Below are positions 11,411 through 62,724 of a DNA stretch of 64,000 bases, piece by piece. Position 1 is the first letter of the stretch; every line of letters starts with the position of its first letter. The translations under genes were made by a program, and so were the position numbers. The DNA is from an uncultured bacterium (GTDB lineage: Bacteria; Patescibacteriota; Minisyncoccia; Phycocordibacterales; UBA918): contig CBFGXL010000004.1 of NCBI GenBank assembly GCA_965652925.1, positions 358-64,357 of the forward strand, in the 5' to 3' direction. Below the pieces are notes generated by a model. It saw only the letters and a program-made list of their open reading frames with translations. It was not told the origin of the DNA and did not search any database.

Positions 11411-11573
11411 ACGTAATTGGTTATCATTACAGTGTATGACGCATTGGCTTTTTTAGCTAGAGTCGCCTTTTTTATGATTCTTGCTACGCACATACTTGTA
11501 CAACAGTGGTTACGAGTTATTGTAACGAAGAATCGAAGCTTACAGCTTCAGTACACCTTTTTGTATGCTCTGT

Positions 11574-48997: not shown

Positions 48998-49253
48998 AAT
49001 GTATTTTTTAGTTGTTAAGCTTGTAAGTTTAACTTCTAATCATGTCGACCTGCATTGAGTAGTGACGTATGGGGGCGATGACTCTTACTTCATGAAAAAC
49101 TCATAATAGCCATATTTTAAGCCCTAGAATAGATTTTTTACAGCCGAAAAAACTATGGTACTTGCGGATCCCTTTGCTCTTCCAAGGCACACTGCACACA
49201 GCAAAAATGCCTGCCGATACAGCAGCGGTTAGATCATCGTCTGGAGAGCAAGA

Positions 49254-49811
49254 TCAGCTTATAAGCTTGGCTGAGCGGCGCATGTTGAGATAGAGAGCAA
49301 TCAGAAGAGCAAACGTGATCGCAGACAAAAGCGGAAATGTCATAAACCCAAACTCATCTATCACCTTTGTGGCACAGTCAGCGGTACCGTCGGCAAGACA
49401 CGGCATGATCCCCGAAGTTGCAATTTCCTGAGGGATCATCTGGTATGCGTATTGATAGAGAGCAACACAAAGTCCGAACAGTGAAAGGGCAATACCGTAC
49501 AGCGGGAAATAAACTACATCTTTTATCTTCCATGCGATCACAGACATAAGTGCCTGCGGATATATAGCAATACGCTGCAGCCAGCACAGTGAACAAGGTA
49601 CAAATCCATAGTATTCAGAATACAAAAGCGATATCGCAACGCTCCCCGTTGTCAGAAGCATGACTGCAATTACTGCATATGGTGAAAACCACCGCTTGTA
49701 GTAGACACTTTTGAAAAGAAAATAGTCTACAAAAAGGAAAAGTGTGACTGGGATCAAAGCCAGTCCGCCAAGCGCAAAGAGGAAATTGAGGGTGTCGATC
49801 CAGAAATACAT
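49254..49811 (-). CDS. Disulfide bond formation protein B (DsbB/BdbC family)
   Basis: Four TM helices with a PCSLCWLQR CxxC motif in the first periplasmic loop. Confidence 0.7.
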   Translation of the reverse strand: MYFWIDTLNFLFALGGLALIPVTLFLFVDYFLFKSVYYKRWFSPYAVIAVMLLTTGSVAISLLYSEYYGFVPCSLCWLQRIAIYPQALMSVIAWKIKDVVYFPLYGIALSLFGLCVALYQYAYQMIPQEIATSGIMPCLADGTADCATKVIDEFGFMTFPLLSAITFALLIALYLNMRRSAKLIS

Positions 49812-49871
49812 AGCTTGTCTATTTACAAAAGCAGTATACCACGATGAGCCTTCACCTTACACGGCCAGTTT

Positions 49872-50408
49872 TTACCCAAAGAAGCGTGAACGGGTTCTCT
49901 GTTCCCACGAAGAAATGATCAGAGCCACATTCTCTTCCGGGGACTGTGTGCCGTCGATTTCCAGATCATATTTATTGAAAGTATGGATCGTCTCAAAGTC
50001 TTTACGCGCAGTTCCAAGCGGACGGTCACCTCTCTCTTTTTCCCGCCGCTCAAGTTCCTCAACAGGACAGTGTACGCCCACAAAAAAGAGATCGGTATCC
50101 TTGAGTATCTCAGACAGAAAGCTCTTCCATTCTTGATTTTCAATGATGTGTTCAACAATAAGATTATTGCCACTCTCAGCGTATGCTCGAAGCGAAAGAT
50201 GGAACCCCTTAAAAAATACCTCCCGGTGCTCTCCCCACTTGAATTCCCCTTGGGCAAATCTTTGGAGCGGCAAAACGCCCGCGTCACGAAGATGATCGAT
50301 TGAAATATGCCAAAAAGGCTCATCAATTTTAGATTGCAACAACTTTGCGATAGTTGACTTGCCTGAGCTCGTTGCTCCATGAAGCAAGATGATCTTTCCC
50401 GGCAACAT
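49872..50408 (-). CDS. Chloramphenicol phosphotransferase-like (CPT family) P-loop kinase
   Basis: Walker A ILLHGATSSGKSTIAK. The overall motif order (…HISIDHL…IVEHII…FFVGVHCPVEELERREKERGDRPLGTARKDF…) mirrors the Streptomyces Cpt/PF07931 architecture. Confidence 0.6.
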   Translation of the reverse strand: MLPGKIILLHGATSSGKSTIAKLLQSKIDEPFWHISIDHLRDAGVLPLQRFAQGEFKWGEHREVFFKGFHLSLRAYAESGNNLIVEHIIENQEWKSFLSEILKDTDLFFVGVHCPVEELERREKERGDRPLGTARKDFETIHTFNKYDLEIDGTQSPEENVALIISSWEQRTRSRFFG

Positions 50409-50461
50409 CCCGAAAGTATAACAAAAGTGGAGGCAAATCCGCTTACGGCGGACTCACCCCG

Positions 50462-51016
50462 TTAAGCTTCAGCGGGTCTCACCATTTCAATAACTGGCAT
50501 GCCTTTAAAAAGAGGCATTTCTGCATCAGTCTTTTCAAATCCGTACTTGGTATAGAATCCGATCGCCGAAGTGTTAAAAGCAAATGCCTCTAAACGAGCA
50601 GGCTTATCTTTGTCGGCCCATGATAAAAATGTTTCCATGAGTTTGCCTCCCACCCCCGAGGCCTTGGCCTCATTCAGCAAATAAACAGCATCGAGCTCGG
50701 TATAGTCATCATGTTTAGACCCATGTAGAAAACCCACGATGTTCCCATCTTTATTTTTAACAACCCTGTAGAGAACTTTGTCTGGATCTGCCAAAGCTTC
50801 TTTGATCGTGTTTTTTCGGAAATCGGTATTGATCAGCAGATGCTTAAGCAGCTCATCAACCTTTTCTTCTGTGAGGCCGGATTCCTGGAGCACATATGTT
50901 TCTTTCCAAGCTTGTATATGCATGGGCGCCAAGGCAAGTTCATCTCCCACTTTTGGTAGTTCAATTTTGAATGTCGGTTCAGTTTCTACTGACATAGATT
51001 TTTCTAGCTCTTCCAT
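50462..51016 (-). CDS. GNAT family N-acetyltransferase
   Basis: Acetyl-CoA binding motif region ...ASGVGGKLMETFLSWA. 184 aa. Confidence 0.7.
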   Translation of the reverse strand: MEELEKSMSVETEPTFKIELPKVGDELALAPMHIQAWKETYVLQESGLTEEKVDELLKHLLINTDFRKNTIKEALADPDKVLYRVVKNKDGNIVGFLHGSKHDDYTELDAVYLLNEAKASGVGGKLMETFLSWADKDKPARLEAFAFNTSAIGFYTKYGFEKTDAEMPLFKGMPVIEMVRPAEA

Positions 51017-51137
51017 AGATTTATTACATCACCGTGACAAAGAAATGTCGAGCCAATGCTCTGGTAGGAAATTGCCGCTGCACAAAAACAAATGCCGCCC
51101 AGTAGTGCCGGGGCGGCTTCGGTTTGTTCGTATTCAT

Positions 51138-51500
51138 TCAGGTCTCGCACAGTGCGTCGATCTCTTCAGATGGCGGGGGTTCAGGTGAAAGAACCGATTC
51201 GCCGAACCGAAGCTCAATGTTTGTGAGAATGCGCCTGATAATCTCCTCCGCCAGTTCAGCGTTCACGTCCTCGACTTTCTCGCCGCGGGCGTTCGCAAAC
51301 ATCTCGCAGAGGGTTCTGATGGCCTCTTTCTGCCCTTCTCTGTTACTCATTTCGTGGGCGAACGTAATGAGCTCTTCTTTTTGCCTATCTTTGACAAAAA
51401 GAGCAGCGGTTAACACCGCTGTGTTAATATCCCTCTGCAGCAGCGTCATGACGCTCTCCTGTGAGTTTGAGATGAAAAAGCCGCAATGCGGTCTGGCCAA
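51138..51500 (-). CDS. Hypothetical protein
   Basis: 120-aa ORF, acidic and helical. No family recognised. The start could be the internal MTLLQRD. Confidence 0.3.
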   Translation of the reverse strand: MARPHCGFFISNSQESVMTLLQRDINTAVLTAALFVKDRQKEELITFAHEMSNREGQKEAIRTLCEMFANARGEKVEDVNAELAEEIIRRILTNIELRFGESVLSPEPPPSEEIDALCET

Positions 51501-51618
51501 TTTATACCATGTTATTTATAAAAGTCGAGCTAGCGTTCTGGGCGAGATTGGAACTTTTTAATACAAAAAGAACCCTTTGTTTAGACTCGCGGGTTCAAAC
51601 GAGTTATACATTTGCAGG

Positions 51619-52026
51619 TTAGTCGCGCAAGCGGAATCTCCGTTGCCGTTCAACACTGCGGAATTTGATGGCAACCTTCTTTTCCTCGGGTCTTGTCAGA
51701 GTAAGCACCCCCGCAGCTTTTCCGCACGAAAACGGAATGCCCCGCGATTGGTTCACCAGCAGACGAAACTCCGCTTTGAGTTCGCGATAAGGTGCAGGAG
51801 TCATTCGGTCTTTCACCCTAACACTGCAGGCGCCCTCGACAGTAATCTCATAGTCCTCATAGGCTGTGTCGAGCCGAATCCAAGAGATCTTCCTGTGCGA
51901 CCACCGCGGAGAGGTCGAGGCATCCGCCTCCTCTCCAGTGTCTCTGAGAAAGAACTCACGAATGAGCGCGTCGACCTTGCGAAGCGCTTCTTCTGTGTAG
52001 CGAGTCGTCTCAAAAGAATTTCCCAT
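51619..52026 (-). CDS. Hypothetical protein
   Basis: 135-aa ORF with no recognised family. The region upstream of it (52030-52200) is AT-rich and promoter-like. Confidence 0.3.
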   Translation of the reverse strand: MGNSFETTRYTEEALRKVDALIREFFLRDTGEEADASTSPRWSHRKISWIRLDTAYEDYEITVEGACSVRVKDRMTPAPYRELKAEFRLLVNQSRGIPFSCGKAAGVLTLTRPEEKKVAIKFRSVERQRRFRLRD

Positions 52027-52199
52027 TCACATTCTCCATCGCGGAAATGAGTGATATCAACCGACATCGCATCGGCACAATATTTATATCATAAATATTG
52101 AAAAAGTCAATATATTGCTGTCCATTGTCCATATGGGATGAAGTCGGGACTTTTGTAAAATTGACAAATTGATATTCCGCATAGATACTTCTTCTAAGT

Positions 52200-52592
52200 C
52201 TGAAGAGATAGGAAATCAAACGAGACTCCGGGAAGTAGGTGCCGTACCAAAAACCGGATCAGGCCAATTAGGAACCAGGTCTGCGCGAGAAGCTCCTCAT
52301 ACGTGAGTATTGGAGCACCATAGAGGGTACACAGTCCCGTATTGTGAGCAGGAAAGTTCAAACTGAGTAGGGGTAAGTTGCGGACAGACCCAACCCGAAA
52401 ATGGGGGCACGGTTTGCCTCCAAGCCTCAGGTCTCTTCAGACGGGGAGAAATTACACGTGCAAGCTTAAGCCGTTAGGTGTAGGCGCAGCGCAAGCGAGT
52501 TCCAACGCGGAGCGAACAAGTACGTTTCTCCCCTCAAACAAGCCGTGGTGGTCACTGATCACCACGGTTTTTCTTTTCTGTGGCGCTCTGGG
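52200..52592 (+). ncRNA. Candidate structured ncRNA of unknown class (promoter-to-terminator unit lacking an ORF)
   Basis: A sigma70-like promoter TTGACA-17nt-GATACT at 52163-52196. Strong intrinsic terminator ccgtggtggtcactgatcaccacgg + T-run at ~52552-52590. No ORF longer than 70 aa in sense. Long-range complementary segments (ggtctgcgc...gcggacagacc; acggggagaaa...tttctccccuc). Confidence 0.35.
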
Positions 52593-52700
52593 ACGAAGCT
52601 TGAAATGTATGGGTATACATTTCAAGGAGGTTACCTGCTCTTTTGTTTAAAAAGAGCGATAACCTGTACTGAACATGTAATGTTGGAACTTTTTTTATCT

Positions 52701-53267
52701 TTATTGTGACTCACCGTCAGAATAAACAGCAATTCTGTCATCAATATATTTGCTTTGTCTTTTATAGGAAACAAGTAAGAAGATGAGCGCGAAAATAAAT
52801 ATCAATTCAGGGTTAATATTTGCAAAACTTTGGGACTCTGTATAAAGCTTCATAAAAAGCCAAACAGCTGGTGTTAGCACCACAACCGCTATAAGGGTTT
52901 TGTAGAGCTCCTTCATCATAACTAGTTTTTCAATAGTGATGTCCTTTTTAGAAGCAATGACATAGTCTCGGTACCAATTACTTTTCTTATTAGGATCCTG
53001 ATTTTTCTCCTTTTTTGATGAAGAAGAAAAGGTCTTGGAAAAATACATCATGATAAATGTCCCTACTCGGTTCGCAAACACACCCGCAATGAAATACAAG
53101 ACGAGTAGATTCACGATATCAAGCGTTTGAGGTGAATCGGGAGTAACATCAACCCCAGCAAAAGTTTCCAAGAGGAAAACAAAAAACACTCCAGGTATGA
53201 AGTGACATATCAAATTGTAGGATGAAACTGTTGAAAAATTGGCTGTGACCGACTCGGGAATATTCAT
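52701..53267 (-). CDS. Hypothetical membrane protein
   Basis: 188 aa with about four TM helices. It lies immediately downstream (minus sense) of repeat copy B. No family recognised. Confidence 0.35.
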   Translation of the reverse strand: MNIPESVTANFSTVSSYNLICHFIPGVFFVFLLETFAGVDVTPDSPQTLDIVNLLVLYFIAGVFANRVGTFIMMYFSKTFSSSSKKEKNQDPNKKSNWYRDYVIASKKDITIEKLVMMKELYKTLIAVVVLTPAVWLFMKLYTESQSFANINPELIFIFALIFLLVSYKRQSKYIDDRIAVYSDGESQ

Positions 53268-53422
53268 AATTTTCTTGATTTAATTGAAGCTTTTACTCAG
53301 CCTCCTTACTGAGCAATATATACCCGAATAAAGCTTAACTATTTCCAAGCAACGAATTTGGGTTTTCGTCAAAAATTTGTACCCTGAGCTTCGAGTGCTT
53401 GGTGCAAAGCCTCCCAGGATTC

Positions 53423-53489
53423 GGTCACGAGTTACTAAGCCTTTTGCTCCAAGCGTTCACAAAAGTCTAAGTACTCTCGACCCCGGCTC
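53423..53489. repeat. tRNA-associated intergenic repeat, copy B
   Basis: GGTCACGAGTTACTAAG-N26-CTAAGTACTCTCGACCCCGGCTC. It is followed at 53527-53541 by an inverted copy (ttcgagtccttgtac) of the tRNA-Gln 3' end. Confidence 0.8.
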
Positions 53490-53549
53490 GCAGGCCCAGA
53501 GGGTTCCCTGCTCCGCCTTTCGAGTCCTTGTACTCCGAGCAACGGCAAA

Positions 53550-53577
53550 GGCCGCAAACACTCACGTGTTTGCGGCC
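53550..53577 (-). terminator. Hairpin terminator downstream of tRNA-Gln
   Basis: ggccgcaaacac-tcac-gtgtttgcggcc, a 12-bp stem. Confidence 0.55.
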
Positions 53578-53586
53578 TGCCGATTG

Positions 53587-53657
53587 CTGGGGTACAAGGA
53601 CTCGAACCTCGATACTCAGGACCAAAACCTGATGTCCTACCATTAGACGATACCCCA
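53587..53657 (-). tRNA. tRNA-Gln (anticodon TTG)
   Basis: Sense strand TGGGGTATCGTCTAATGGTAGGACATCAGGTTTTGGTCCTGAGTATCGAGGTTCGAGTCCTTGTACCCCAG. U1-A72 and the TGGGGTA...TACCCCAG ends match bacterial tRNA-Gln. Confidence 0.85.
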
Positions 53658-53675
53658 ATATGCATCTGTACTGCA

Positions 53676-53810
53676 GCGTCAATACTCAGGACCATTTCAT
53701 TACATGAACGGTTCAGGTTGTCGCTCTTTCTTCCAAAAAGAGCTGGCAACCTCCTTCAAGACTCCCCCGGACTCTTGAAGCCTGATGTCCTGCCATGAGA
53801 CGATACCCCA
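53676..53810 (-). pseudogene. Degenerate tRNA-Gln-like fragments (pseudo-tRNA / possible integration-site remnant)
   Basis: On the minus strand, GGGGTATCGTCTCATGGCAGGACATCAGG (near-copy of the tRNA-Gln 5' half) is followed by a ~60-nt insert containing a hairpin, and then GGTCCTGAGTATTGACG (copy of the anticodon 3' stem/variable region). There is no intact T-arm. Confidence 0.5.
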
Positions 53811-53918
53811 AGTGCAAGCGCAATACTAACGCACTGACACCACTATTTCAACCGGACTTCATGCGTTCTTCGGGGTCTGTCTGGTACACTATTTTCATTA
53901 ACATTAAGCACGAGCACT

Positions 53919-54281
53919 ATGGCTTACGTAGATGGTTTTGTATTGGTGGTCCCCAAAGAGAACAAGGCAGCATATAAGAAGATGGCAAAAGAAGGAGCAA
54001 AAGCCTGGAAGGAATTTGGCGCCCTTGAGTACAAGGAATGCCGGGCTGACGATATGACCCCCAACAATGTATTCTTCACTTTTCCCAAGATGGCCAAGGC
54101 AAAAGAAGGAGAAGAGGTGTGGTTCTCTTTTATTGTATTCAAGAATAAAGCTGAACGAAATGCGATCAACAAGAAAGTAATGGCGTATTTTGACAAGAAG
54201 TATGCAGGCAAAGACATGCCAATGCCATTTGACATGAAGCGCTTTGCATACGGCGGGTTCACTGTTGAAATCGAGGCATAG
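53919..54281 (+). CDS. DUF1428 domain protein
   Basis: MAYVDGFVLVVPKENKAAYKKMA... matches the DUF1428 consensus. 120 aa. Bidirectional terminator at 54296-54335. Confidence 0.65.
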   Translation: MAYVDGFVLVVPKENKAAYKKMAKEGAKAWKEFGALEYKECRADDMTPNNVFFTFPKMAKAKEGEEVWFSFIVFKNKAERNAINKKVMAYFDKKYAGKDMPMPFDMKRFAYGGFTVEIEA

Positions 54282-54334: not shown

Positions 54335-54622
54335 TTACCCACCCTTGCTTCTTTTGTAGCAGTCCAAGCACAGAAGGTTGCTCGTATCGCGCGGCGTAAA
54401 AGGAAGGCTTGTTATCGCTGTTCCGCAATTACTGCACTTCCAATCCCCCTCAACACGCGGGCGATCGCTTGTTGGAGTGGCGGCTCCTCCGCTCCCTTCC
54501 GCTCGCTTCTTTGCATGACACTCCCTGCACGTAAGTCCAGCAGTTGAGCGCGGTTCAAATGGCAGTTCGGTTATCGCCTTTCCGCACGTGCTGCACGTCC
54601 AATTTCCTTGAAATGTATTCAT
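54335..54622 (-). CDS. Tandem zinc-ribbon protein (two CxxC-X17-CxxC modules)
   Basis: Internal duplication: W(T/K)CS(T/N)CG(K/T)AIT(E/S)LPF(E/T)PR...L(T/L)C(R/L)(E/D)C appears twice. Eight Cys in four CxxC pairs. Confidence 0.45.
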   Translation of the reverse strand: MNTFQGNWTCSTCGKAITELPFEPRSTAGLTCRECHAKKRAEGSGGAATPTSDRPRVEGDWKCSNCGTAITSLPFTPRDTSNLLCLDCYKRSKGG

Positions 54623-60403: not shown

Positions 60404-60633
60404 GCTCGTAAACATCGCTTCGGCCTTCAATCCTGAACAGAAGCGAATCAGTTCGCTTCTTTCATTGTCTTGCAGCAAAATTGCCCAGCACTATGCTGGG
60501 CAATTTTGCTGCTGAGCCAATGATCAGGATTGAAACTTACAGTTTCTGTATACCTTTTGGCTATTTCTGTTCGCTAGCTCCAGAAATAGCACAAAAGCTT
60601 TTCAATCCTGCTCCTTTTACTGCGTAAAAGTTG

Positions 60634-62544: not shown

Positions 62545-62724
62545 CAGTATACATAAAGGCCGGCTTTATAGCCGGTCTTTATGTATACTACACCTGAGGG
62601 ACTTGAAGAGGTTGCCTGCAATTTTGAAGCATGAAAAATTGCGACAACCTGTACCGATCCTGTAAGGATCAAGTCCCTTTTTCCATTTGAAAGAAAGTGC
62701 CAAATATAGTAGTCTGTTGCTCAC

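Follow-up and report, generated by a model that had tools for sequence, protein, structure and literature searches.

A putative free-standing RNA derived from domains I and II of 23S rRNA in a species-specific island of a candidate phyla radiation bacterium

The DNA analysed here, called the window in what follows, is a stretch of 64,000 nucleotides (nt) of contig CBFGXL010000004.1 from an uncultured bacterium of the candidate phyla radiation (CPR), and the interval 52196-52580 on its + strand is read as a putative free-standing gene for an RNA of ~380 nt of 23S ribosomal RNA (rRNA) descent. Comparisons of sequence and structure identify this predicted RNA as a homologue of two parts of 23S rRNA, namely helices (H) 12 to 22 of domain I and H27 to H31 of domain II. 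The best reading of the locus is that of a transcribed, 23S-derived rRNA mimic that would bind the ribosomal proteins (r-proteins) uL4 and uL24, and a probability of about 0.4 is given to this statement as a whole, the existence of the gene included.

Relationship to bacterial 23S rRNA

The decisive lead to the 23S identity came from blastn matches to plasmid records. A total of 178 records were matched, all of them at query positions 261-317, with 90-98% identity and in unannotated DNA, and in one of these records, the Ruegeria TM1040 megaplasmid, an Rfam scan places the match inside a 23S rRNA gene. Comparison with the Ruegeria 23S by nhmmer gives two collinear alignments, RNA 259-329 with 23S 619-687 (E 5.9e-10) and RNA 15-243 with 23S 261-464 (E 2.6e-3). 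A profile hidden Markov model (HMM) built from nine 23S segments (E. coli, Ruegeria, Azospirillum, Burkholderia, Bacillus, Clostridioides, Segatella, a cyanobacterium and the Rfam consensus) finds just two matches in the 128 kb formed by both strands of the window, again collinear, at 52193-52435 (E 1e-6) and 52454-52521 (E 8e-7). The covariance model R1, which covers H27-H31 and combines the same nine sequences with the Rfam structure, has a single match in the window, 52456-52525 (42.4 bits, E 3.8e-9), in which every pair is canonical. For H14-H22, a single-sequence E. coli model (R2) was adopted because a MAFFT alignment of the proteobacterial sequences misaligned H14; R2 retrieves all real 23S genes at 60-119 bits, and its sole match in the window, 52259-52431, is full length (28.9 bits, E 5e-6).

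The Rfam model of the bacterial large-subunit rRNA (LSU_rRNA_bacteria, RF02541), searched against 52190-52540, aligns 52190-52430 to model positions 198-470 (26.1 bits, E 2.8e-6) and 52456-52525 to positions 636-704 (24.0 bits, E 1.3e-5), with ~165 model positions deleted between the two collinear matches. Both lie on the + strand and under the gathering score of 50 bits. At the gathering score, Rfam reports only tRNAs in the whole window, and at E<=10 only noise in the 751 nt of 52000-52750, the LSU match surfacing only in a search space of ~350 nt. A covariance-model scan of the interval, proposed along with the original prediction, therefore does return a known family, on the sense strand and not on the opposite one, below gathering and only in the small search space. 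Routine scans of either kind are silent here, so that such loci can be mistaken for novel non-coding RNA (ncRNA) families. The homology is significant and partial (E from 1e-5 to 4e-9). A complete molecule of six domains and ~2.9 kb, with its peptidyl-transferase centre and the surroundings of an rRNA gene, is not present: protein-coding genes on the opposite strand flank the RNA, it is not part of an rRNA operon, and the 64-kb window contains no other 16S-, 23S- or 5S-like sequence beyond the two matches. As judged from its sequence, the RNA is a new variant on the known 23S rRNA, not a new RNA family, and is so far confined to one species.

The reference set of 23S sequences used to compare origins contained no CPR or Kaiserbacteria sequence, and within this set Alphaproteobacteria come closest to the RNA. 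In the H28-H31 block the identity is 85% to Ruegeria and 58-72% to the others, with 43 of 45 core nt matching Ruegeria, and the AGGC/GCCU variant of H14 is as in Azospirillum and in one alpha-like 23S from soil. For domain I, a model-fitted alignment gives 59-67% identity to alphaproteobacterial sequences and 47-55% to the rest, whereas profile-HMM identities barely favour Alphaproteobacteria. H9, H63, H78 and H98, which CPR 23S is reported to lack (PMC9297842), differ from the helices missing in this RNA.

Architecture of the RNA

With RNA position 1 set at window position 52196, the RNA appears as two modules, each sealed at its ends by a perfect helix (Table 1). The domain I-like module is closed by P1, a helix of 12 bp (11 Watson-Crick pairs and one G-U) between RNA 3-14 and 236-247. 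Its strands align to the 3' strand of 23S H11 and to the strand after H14; these are unpaired with each other in the ribosome, and P1 is therefore a new helix. The domain II-like module is closed by a lengthened H27 (H27', RNA 248-266 with 325-338), which can form in two registers of 10+3 or 8+6 bp. P1 and the lengthened part of H27 are helices absent from 23S, and both are placed exactly at the module boundaries.

Inside the modules, the long-range pairing of H14 is retained as AGGC with GCCU, and H18 pairs GGUCUGC with GCAGG. At the H18/H19/H20 junction, the single-stranded nt GAA, AC, CAUAG, A and GUA are those of the Rfam LSU consensus. Several peripheral hairpins (H19, H21 and H22) and loops (those of H13 and H31) are replaced or re-capped, in two cases by GNRA tetraloops; H19 is lengthened by a perfect 4-bp extension and capped by GUGA. 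A 23S-like fold threaded by hand has 110 pairs, all canonical, and 82 of these are also found in the unconstrained minimum free energy (MFE) structure.

What is missing, in E. coli numbering, is the segment ~445-595 (the 3' strands of H2-H4, H23-H25 and the 5' strand of H26), together with everything 5' of ~195 and 3' of ~665. The deleted parts are the strands whose pairing partners are absent plus three local hairpins (H23-H25). The similarity to 23S begins a few nt from the inferred start of transcription and stops just before a strong terminator.

Table 1. Features of the predicted RNA and its surroundings (window coordinates unless a locus is named)
Feature	Position	Strand	Remarks
135-aa gene	51619-52026	-	divergent from the RNA
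Sigma-70-type promoter	52161-52189	+	-35 TTGACA 52161-52166, 17-nt spacer, -10 GATACT 52184-52189
P1, 5' strand	52198-52209	+	GUCUGAAGAGAU; neo-helix, from the 3' strand of 23S H11; aligns to UCUAAGUACCCGGAGGAA of 23S
Domain I-like module	52210-52430	+	RF02541, profile HMM, E. coli covariance model
H12	52216-52223	+	domain I-like module
H13	52227-52258	+	domain I-like module
H14	52261-52264/52424-52427	+	domain I-like module
H16-H18	52270-52288/52342-52364	+	domain I-like module; reduced
H18/H19/H20 three-way junction	52280-52352	+	equivalent of E. coli nt 281-359, uL4/uL24 primary site
H19	52292-52316	+	domain I-like module; extended, GUGA loop
H20a/H20	52319-52338	+	domain I-like module
H21	52371-52391	+	domain I-like module; remodelled
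H22	52403-52421	+	domain I-like module; extended
P1, 3' strand	52431-52442	+	GUCUCUUCAGAC; closes the domain I-like module
Domain II H27-H31-like module	52443-52533	+	covariance model R1, RF02541, Ruegeria identity
H27'	52443-52461/52520-52533	+	domain II-like module; extended
H28	52464-52485	+	domain II-like module
H29	52489-52496	+	domain II-like module; GCAA loop
H31	52499-52513	+	domain II-like module
Intrinsic terminator	52540-52580	+	14-bp stem-loop 52540-52570, 7 GC pairs, then TTTTTCTTTT (U-run)
Three-way-junction element, ~80 nt	52615-52694	+	outside the RNA, just after the terminator; covariance model R3, 61.8 bits, E 4e-16
188-aa gene	52701-53267	-	predicted membrane protein, convergent with the RNA
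Three-way-junction element, further copy	53686-53766	-	
Three-way-junction element, further copy	60523-60612	-	
Three-way-junction element, further copy	62596-62679	+	
Three-way-junction element, weak copy	11526-11572	-	
Three-way-junction element, related Paceibacteria loci	L036 2327-2404; L025 5360-5447; L008 12640-12717; L030 5091-5174; others		
Species-specific variable region	~49118-53586		from the 3' end of tRNA-Gln
tRNA-Gln	53586-53657	-	
Degenerate second tRNA-Gln copy	53670-53811	-	
DUF1428 protein gene	53919-54281	+	
95-aa protein gene	54335-54622	-	two treble-clef zinc fingers (PF23477)

The transcription unit

The signals around the interval support a promoter-to-terminator unit on the + strand, predicted to encode a non-coding RNA that is highly structured and seems specific to the lineage. 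The promoter-like site matches the consensus at 10 of 12 positions, with a perfect -35 box and a fair -10 box, and transcription would start at A52196/A52197. Both strands of the 64-kb window (128 kb) contain only eight sites as good as TTGACA-17-GATACT, others of which precede a tRNA gene or open reading frames (ORFs). The terminator, with its core ccgtggtggtcactgatcaccacgg at 52543-52567, has a hairpin of -21.6 kcal/mol by itself (z = -5.6), and on the minus strand no T-run follows this hairpin. The two signals had already been recognised in the original prediction, and both exist; the positions given there, 52163-52196 for the promoter and ~52552-52590 for the terminator, give way to those of Table 1, a shift of 2-10 nt. 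The interior is indeed GC-rich, with 52.5% instead of the ~55% first stated, against 35-38% in the flanks and 48% in the window.

The structured nature of the predicted ncRNA is borne out by folding energies: on the + strand the whole unit reaches an MFE of -142.8 kcal/mol, with z = -5.1 relative to shuffled sequences, against z = -2.2 on the minus strand, and without the terminator the values are -4.4 and -2.2, respectively. One of two long-range pairings proposed earlier, acggggagaaa with tttctcccctc, is real (52441 with 52525) and forms the base of the 10+3 bp helix. The other, ggtctgcgc with gcggacagacc, is imperfect and falls outside the 23S-like fold; its members lie at 52278 and 52380 and not at 52318 and 52432, a difference of 40-50 nt, and the region of the former pairs as H18 while the latter segment is located in H21. 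It had also been claimed that no sense ORF exceeds 70 aa, which is literally untrue, as a mechanical ORF list includes a 90-aa TTG ORF (52378-52650) that crosses the terminator, besides short ones on both strands; a 22-aa ATG ORF (52401-52469, +) was spotted by eye. Nothing supports the 90-aa ORF as a gene: the ORFs of the interval have no ribosome-binding site and no homologues, and they overlap the helices.

Maintenance of the fold

In the model-based alignment, 32 of the 37 comparable pairs are canonical, and real 23S sequences of other phyla have 35-44 of 48 on the same model. Neutral decay was simulated from each of eight real 23S sequences to the observed divergence, with 2000 runs per parent; such decay leaves ~13-20 canonical pairs, and the observed count is reached in none of the 2000 runs of any parent. 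Of the 51 columns without variation in the eight real 23S sequences, the RNA keeps 36, and 12 of the 15 losses fall in the H19, H21 and H22 hairpins, whose loop invariants, common to RF02541 members across phyla, are gone. The remodelling thus appears not to be random, because the losses of invariant nt cluster in three hairpins while the junction nt are kept and closing helices stand at the module boundaries. Population single-nucleotide polymorphisms at the locus are sparse.

Proposed function

The proteins uL4 and uL24, which initiate 50S assembly, bind the H18/H19/H20 junction (E. coli nt 281-359) and leave the outer part of H18 uncontacted (PMC6426284), and in early-assembly structures determined by cryo-electron microscopy the state that gains uL4 simultaneously gains density for H27-31 of domain II (PMC9935924). 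Both parts of this site, the H18/H19/H20 junction with its junction nt and H27-H31, can be recognised in the predicted RNA. A uL4/uL24-binding mimic is suggested because both retained modules are organised by these early-assembly proteins. The RNA would be transcribed and would fold like the matching part of the 50S subunit, and it may then bind uL4 and/or uL24 in trans, as a sponge, a regulator or a chaperone. The kept junction nt and H27-H31, the shortened outer H18, the loss of all parts left without partners and the sealing of the modules by new helices would together amount to a minimised platform for uL4 (and uL24). The RNA is very unlikely to be a component of the ribosome, because invariant loops and all the catalytic domains are absent. 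The fuller picture, of a domesticated mini-23S in a strain-specific island of a CPR bacterium, beside a candidate defence gene and acting in trans as an r-protein sponge or assembly decoy, is rather doubtful at present.

If such a sponge or decoy were real, it would represent a new class of regulatory RNAs, that of molecular mimics derived from rRNA, and regulatory RNAs would be seen to arise in a new way, through the domestication of rRNA modules. A natural "minimal" uL4/uL24 platform would also be of interest for studies of 50S assembly. If the alphaproteobacterial-type signature is real, the RNA could derive from, and target, the ribosome assembly of another organism, for example a host. 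A literature search found no precedent, and to our knowledge an expressed, uL4/uL24-binding RNA of this kind would be the first free-standing bacterial ncRNA truly homologous to an rRNA subdomain outside the ribosome.

Weighing of the alternatives

Several observations weigh against an rRNA mimic. The -10 box matches only four of six positions. The pair count comes from a covariance-model alignment, which is fitted to structure and biased towards pairing, and the preserved pairing could be inherited from an unsampled parent 23S, such as the organism's own. A helix of at least 12 bp occurs somewhere in 5% of shuffles, so that P1 is special by its placement only, and covariation of P1 and H27' finds no support, only identical copies from the same species having been found. 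Protein contacts may not all survive, because H18 is heavily shortened and the H19 loop is gone. The three closest relatives (CTP synthase 94%, 89% and 87% identical) lack the RNA at the syntenic position, and the 83 related CTP-synthase loci (1.2 Mb) contain neither a copy of it nor any 23S-like fragment; pattern scans of GTDB, JGI and IMG/VR found no homologue either, although these require exact matches and a diverged family could escape them. Finally, the RNA is located in a species-specific island among orphan genes, where relics also accumulate. The main rival of the rRNA mimic, possible although judged somewhat doubtful, is a non-functional relic, that is, a fragment of the organism's own or a foreign 23S left in a variable island by recombination or integration, which later suffered deletions and is flanked by chance by promoter- and terminator-like sequences. 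Its presence in one species only, its orphan neighbours, the score below Rfam gathering, the loss of 15 of 51 invariant positions, pairing that could come from the parent rRNA and long helices that arise by chance all speak for a relic. Against a relic speak deletions that remove segments without partners (from H2-H4 the 3' strands, from H26 the 5' strand) plus H23-H25 between them, the conversion of both ends of each module into perfect helices (12 bp; 10+3 or 8+6 bp), the extension of hairpins by perfect pairs and GNRA caps, losses of invariant nt that are clustered in three hairpins and not scattered, and a 23S similarity that fits between the inferred start site and the strong terminator; the pairs are also far more numerous than neutral decay of any sampled 23S would leave. 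If the locus is a relic after all, it still records how a piece of rRNA was captured and remodelled by a CPR genome.

The remaining explanations keep the RNA or the interval functional in other ways. The RNA could be an rRNA decoy with another target, be it a toxin that attacks ribosomes or their assembly or a factor of phage or defence origin, or it could be directed at a host, as a mimic of the 23S of an alphaproteobacterium on which this episymbiont would live. The adjacent convergent 188-aa gene, with its matches to PDC-M48A and phrog_11864, the position of the island at a tRNA gene and the proximity of H28-H31, H14 and the model-fitted domain I to Alphaproteobacteria among the references point in that direction, but no partner can be named, PDC-M48 is merely a candidate system, the alpha-like signature may simply be common to this lineage, as the references lack CPR 23S, and the profile-HMM identities of domain I have almost no such preference; this explanation is unlikely. 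Far less probable is a trans-encoded piece of a split 23S that would be built into the ribosome like 5.8S or chloroplast 4.5S rRNA: homology and fold do match a contiguous surface subdomain of 23S, and interrupted rRNA genes are common in CPR (PMC9297842, PMC11270868), but nt invariant in all sampled 23S, including the H19, H21 and H22 loops, are lost, the extra closing helices would clash with the native H2-H11 and H26, the piece is absent from close relatives at this site, and the gaps reported for CPR 23S lie elsewhere. It is equally hard to credit that the interval, placed between two genes of the minus strand, is a minus-strand cis-regulatory leader or long untranslated region (UTR) of the 135-aa gene, or a small-protein gene on the strength of its 22-aa ATG and 90-aa TTG ORFs, since all rRNA-model matches are on the + strand, the minus-strand fold is much poorer, the terminator hairpin lacks a T-run there, the sole distant homologue of the 135-aa protein has no such RNA upstream, and the ORFs have the shortcomings described above.

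Comparison with known RNAs

Compared with the bacterial 23S rRNA, the RNA is collinear and keeps the H14 long-range pairing and the H18/H19/H20 and H27-H31 junctions; it differs in comprising ~340 of ~2900 nt, in lacking ~165 internal positions, in scoring below the gathering threshold, and in having the P1 and H27' neo-helices, a putative promoter and terminator of its own and no catalytic domains. Partial rRNA pseudogenes are likewise isolated, truncated rRNA-like sequences in a variable region of one species; they lack the promoter and terminator bounds, the preserved pairing and the module ends remade into helices. Split rRNAs, such as 5.8S, chloroplast 4.5S, fragments produced by intervening sequences and the scattered mitochondrial rRNA pieces of Plasmodium (PMC3382252), are also separately encoded sub-regions of the LSU, but they keep the native sequence and assemble into the ribosome, whereas this RNA has lost invariant loops and gained incompatible closing helices.

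The autoregulatory mRNA leaders of r-proteins (L1, L20, S8, S15, and the L4 control of the S10 operon) mimic rRNA binding sites. By analogy, both would be extraribosomal RNAs that reproduce an r-protein site. The leaders, however, are short cis segments in the 5' UTRs of r-protein operons and usually convergent mimics, while the RNA described here is ~380 nt long, apparently free-standing and a true rRNA homologue, with no downstream gene: it is followed by a terminator, beyond which lies the convergent gene of a membrane protein. If functional, it would resemble 6S RNA, which mimics open promoter DNA, and transfer-messenger RNA (tmRNA), which mimics tRNA and mRNA, in being a stable decoy for the gene-expression machinery, without any relation to them in sequence or structure and with an r-protein or an assembly step as its proposed target.

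Identity with any of the classical ncRNAs was rejected. The suggestion of 6S RNA, a rod of ~180 nt with a central bubble, fails on the lack of an Rfam match and on the multi-branched fold of ~380 nt. The absence of tmRNA and signal recognition particle (SRP) RNA signals, already noted from the letters, was upheld: ARAGORN reports no tmRNA, and neither tmRNA nor SRP RNA nor RNase P RNA has an Rfam match even at E<=10. These families are marked, respectively, by a tRNA-like domain with a tag ORF, by SRP domain IV, and by P4 with the motifs CR-I to CR-V. The cores of RNase P, tmRNA, T-box and hammerhead RNAs were also compared by eye and rejected. The idea of a lineage-specific ncRNA holds in that a single species carries it, and not in the sense of an RNA without relatives, given its homology to 23S rRNA.

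Distribution

The identical locus is found in seven independently assembled contigs, all of the same species, and is therefore real DNA and no assembly artefact. Conservation in related genomes, which had been proposed as a check, was not found in the loci of relatives or in pattern scans, as far as these could test it. The pattern CCCGTA-N(105-135)-TTAAGCCGTTAGGTGTAG gave no match in genome_contigs, the source species included, ATAGNGGGTACACAGTCCCGTA gave none in metagenomes, and an interior 23-mer and further patterns searched in viral contigs gave no homologue; blastn against phages found no similar DNA. Membership in a conserved ncRNA family was not found in these searches, which were limited to exact patterns or to synteny, and the lack of homologues speaks against an ncRNA family of wide distribution but is no argument against the gene being real. 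An architecture pattern made of universal 23S motifs at shortened spacing had one match (locus L021, JGI contig Ga0193708_1032798, 70-535), which was rejected as a homologue, being an ordinary alpha-like 23S fragment with an internal gap. This fragment, which is unrelated to the RNA of the window, lacks ~150 positions (profile 380-532, roughly E. coli 470-620) and is normal thereafter; it is a natural variant with a deletion or else an artefact of assembly.

The island and its genes

By the names of its closest CTP synthases and of the related loci, the organism is a CPR bacterium of Paceibacteria/Kaiserbacteria type. Synteny with the three closest relatives (L008, L010 and L012) holds as far as tRNA-Gln and then breaks, giving way to the species-specific variable region of Table 1. 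This island contains DsbB, a CPT-like kinase, a GNAT protein, two near-orphan genes, the 23S-like RNA and the 188-aa membrane protein, and no integrase was seen in it. For the 188-aa protein there are matches to PDC-M48A, a candidate defence family of PADLOC (E 7.5e-24), and to phrog_11864 (E 2.6e-13), none in Pfam or NCBIfam, and no close relatives in a word-indexed protein search; a literature search found no paper on PDC-M48. The 135-aa protein is a near-orphan, with no match in Pfam, PHROG, PADLOC, NCBIfam or PDB, no relatives in the word-indexed search and an AlphaFold model with a predicted local distance difference test (pLDDT) value of 37. HMMER against 1.8 billion representatives found one homologue, 38% identical, located on a 1.5-kb contig (L102, 218-643) directly after a tRNA 3' end, with no 23S-like RNA nearby.

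Beyond the island, between tRNA-Gln and CTP synthase, the window encodes the PF23477 protein and the DUF1428 protein of Table 1, an arrangement that is conserved in the relatives L008 and L009.

A three-way-junction element downstream of the RNA

Just after the terminator, and outside the RNA, lies one copy of an element of ~80 nt without any match in Rfam. It forms a three-way junction made up of a closing stem, a long hairpin (GGUUGCC...GACAACC) and a short one whose UGUAA loop is invariant. The covariance model R3 finds 35 strong copies in 23 of 85 sources (the window and related loci), these 23 amounting to 0.35 Mb, and nine of its 27 pairs show double-sided changes, that is, covariation. 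Sixteen of the 35 copies are located 25-78 nt downstream of a tRNA on the same strand, against an expected 2.5%. The 23S-like RNA shares this 3' neighbour with tRNA genes of the lineage, which fits a stable-RNA transcription unit. The element itself could serve stable-RNA genes as a terminator or in processing, or else be a small RNA or a repeat that is structured or mobile. A further copy is inserted between the two parts of the degenerate second copy of tRNA-Gln, which lies beside the tRNA-Gln gene and is not called by ARAGORN; one part (53778-53811) shares 91% identity with the 5' half of the tRNA, and the other (53670-53694) shares 80% with part of its 3' half.

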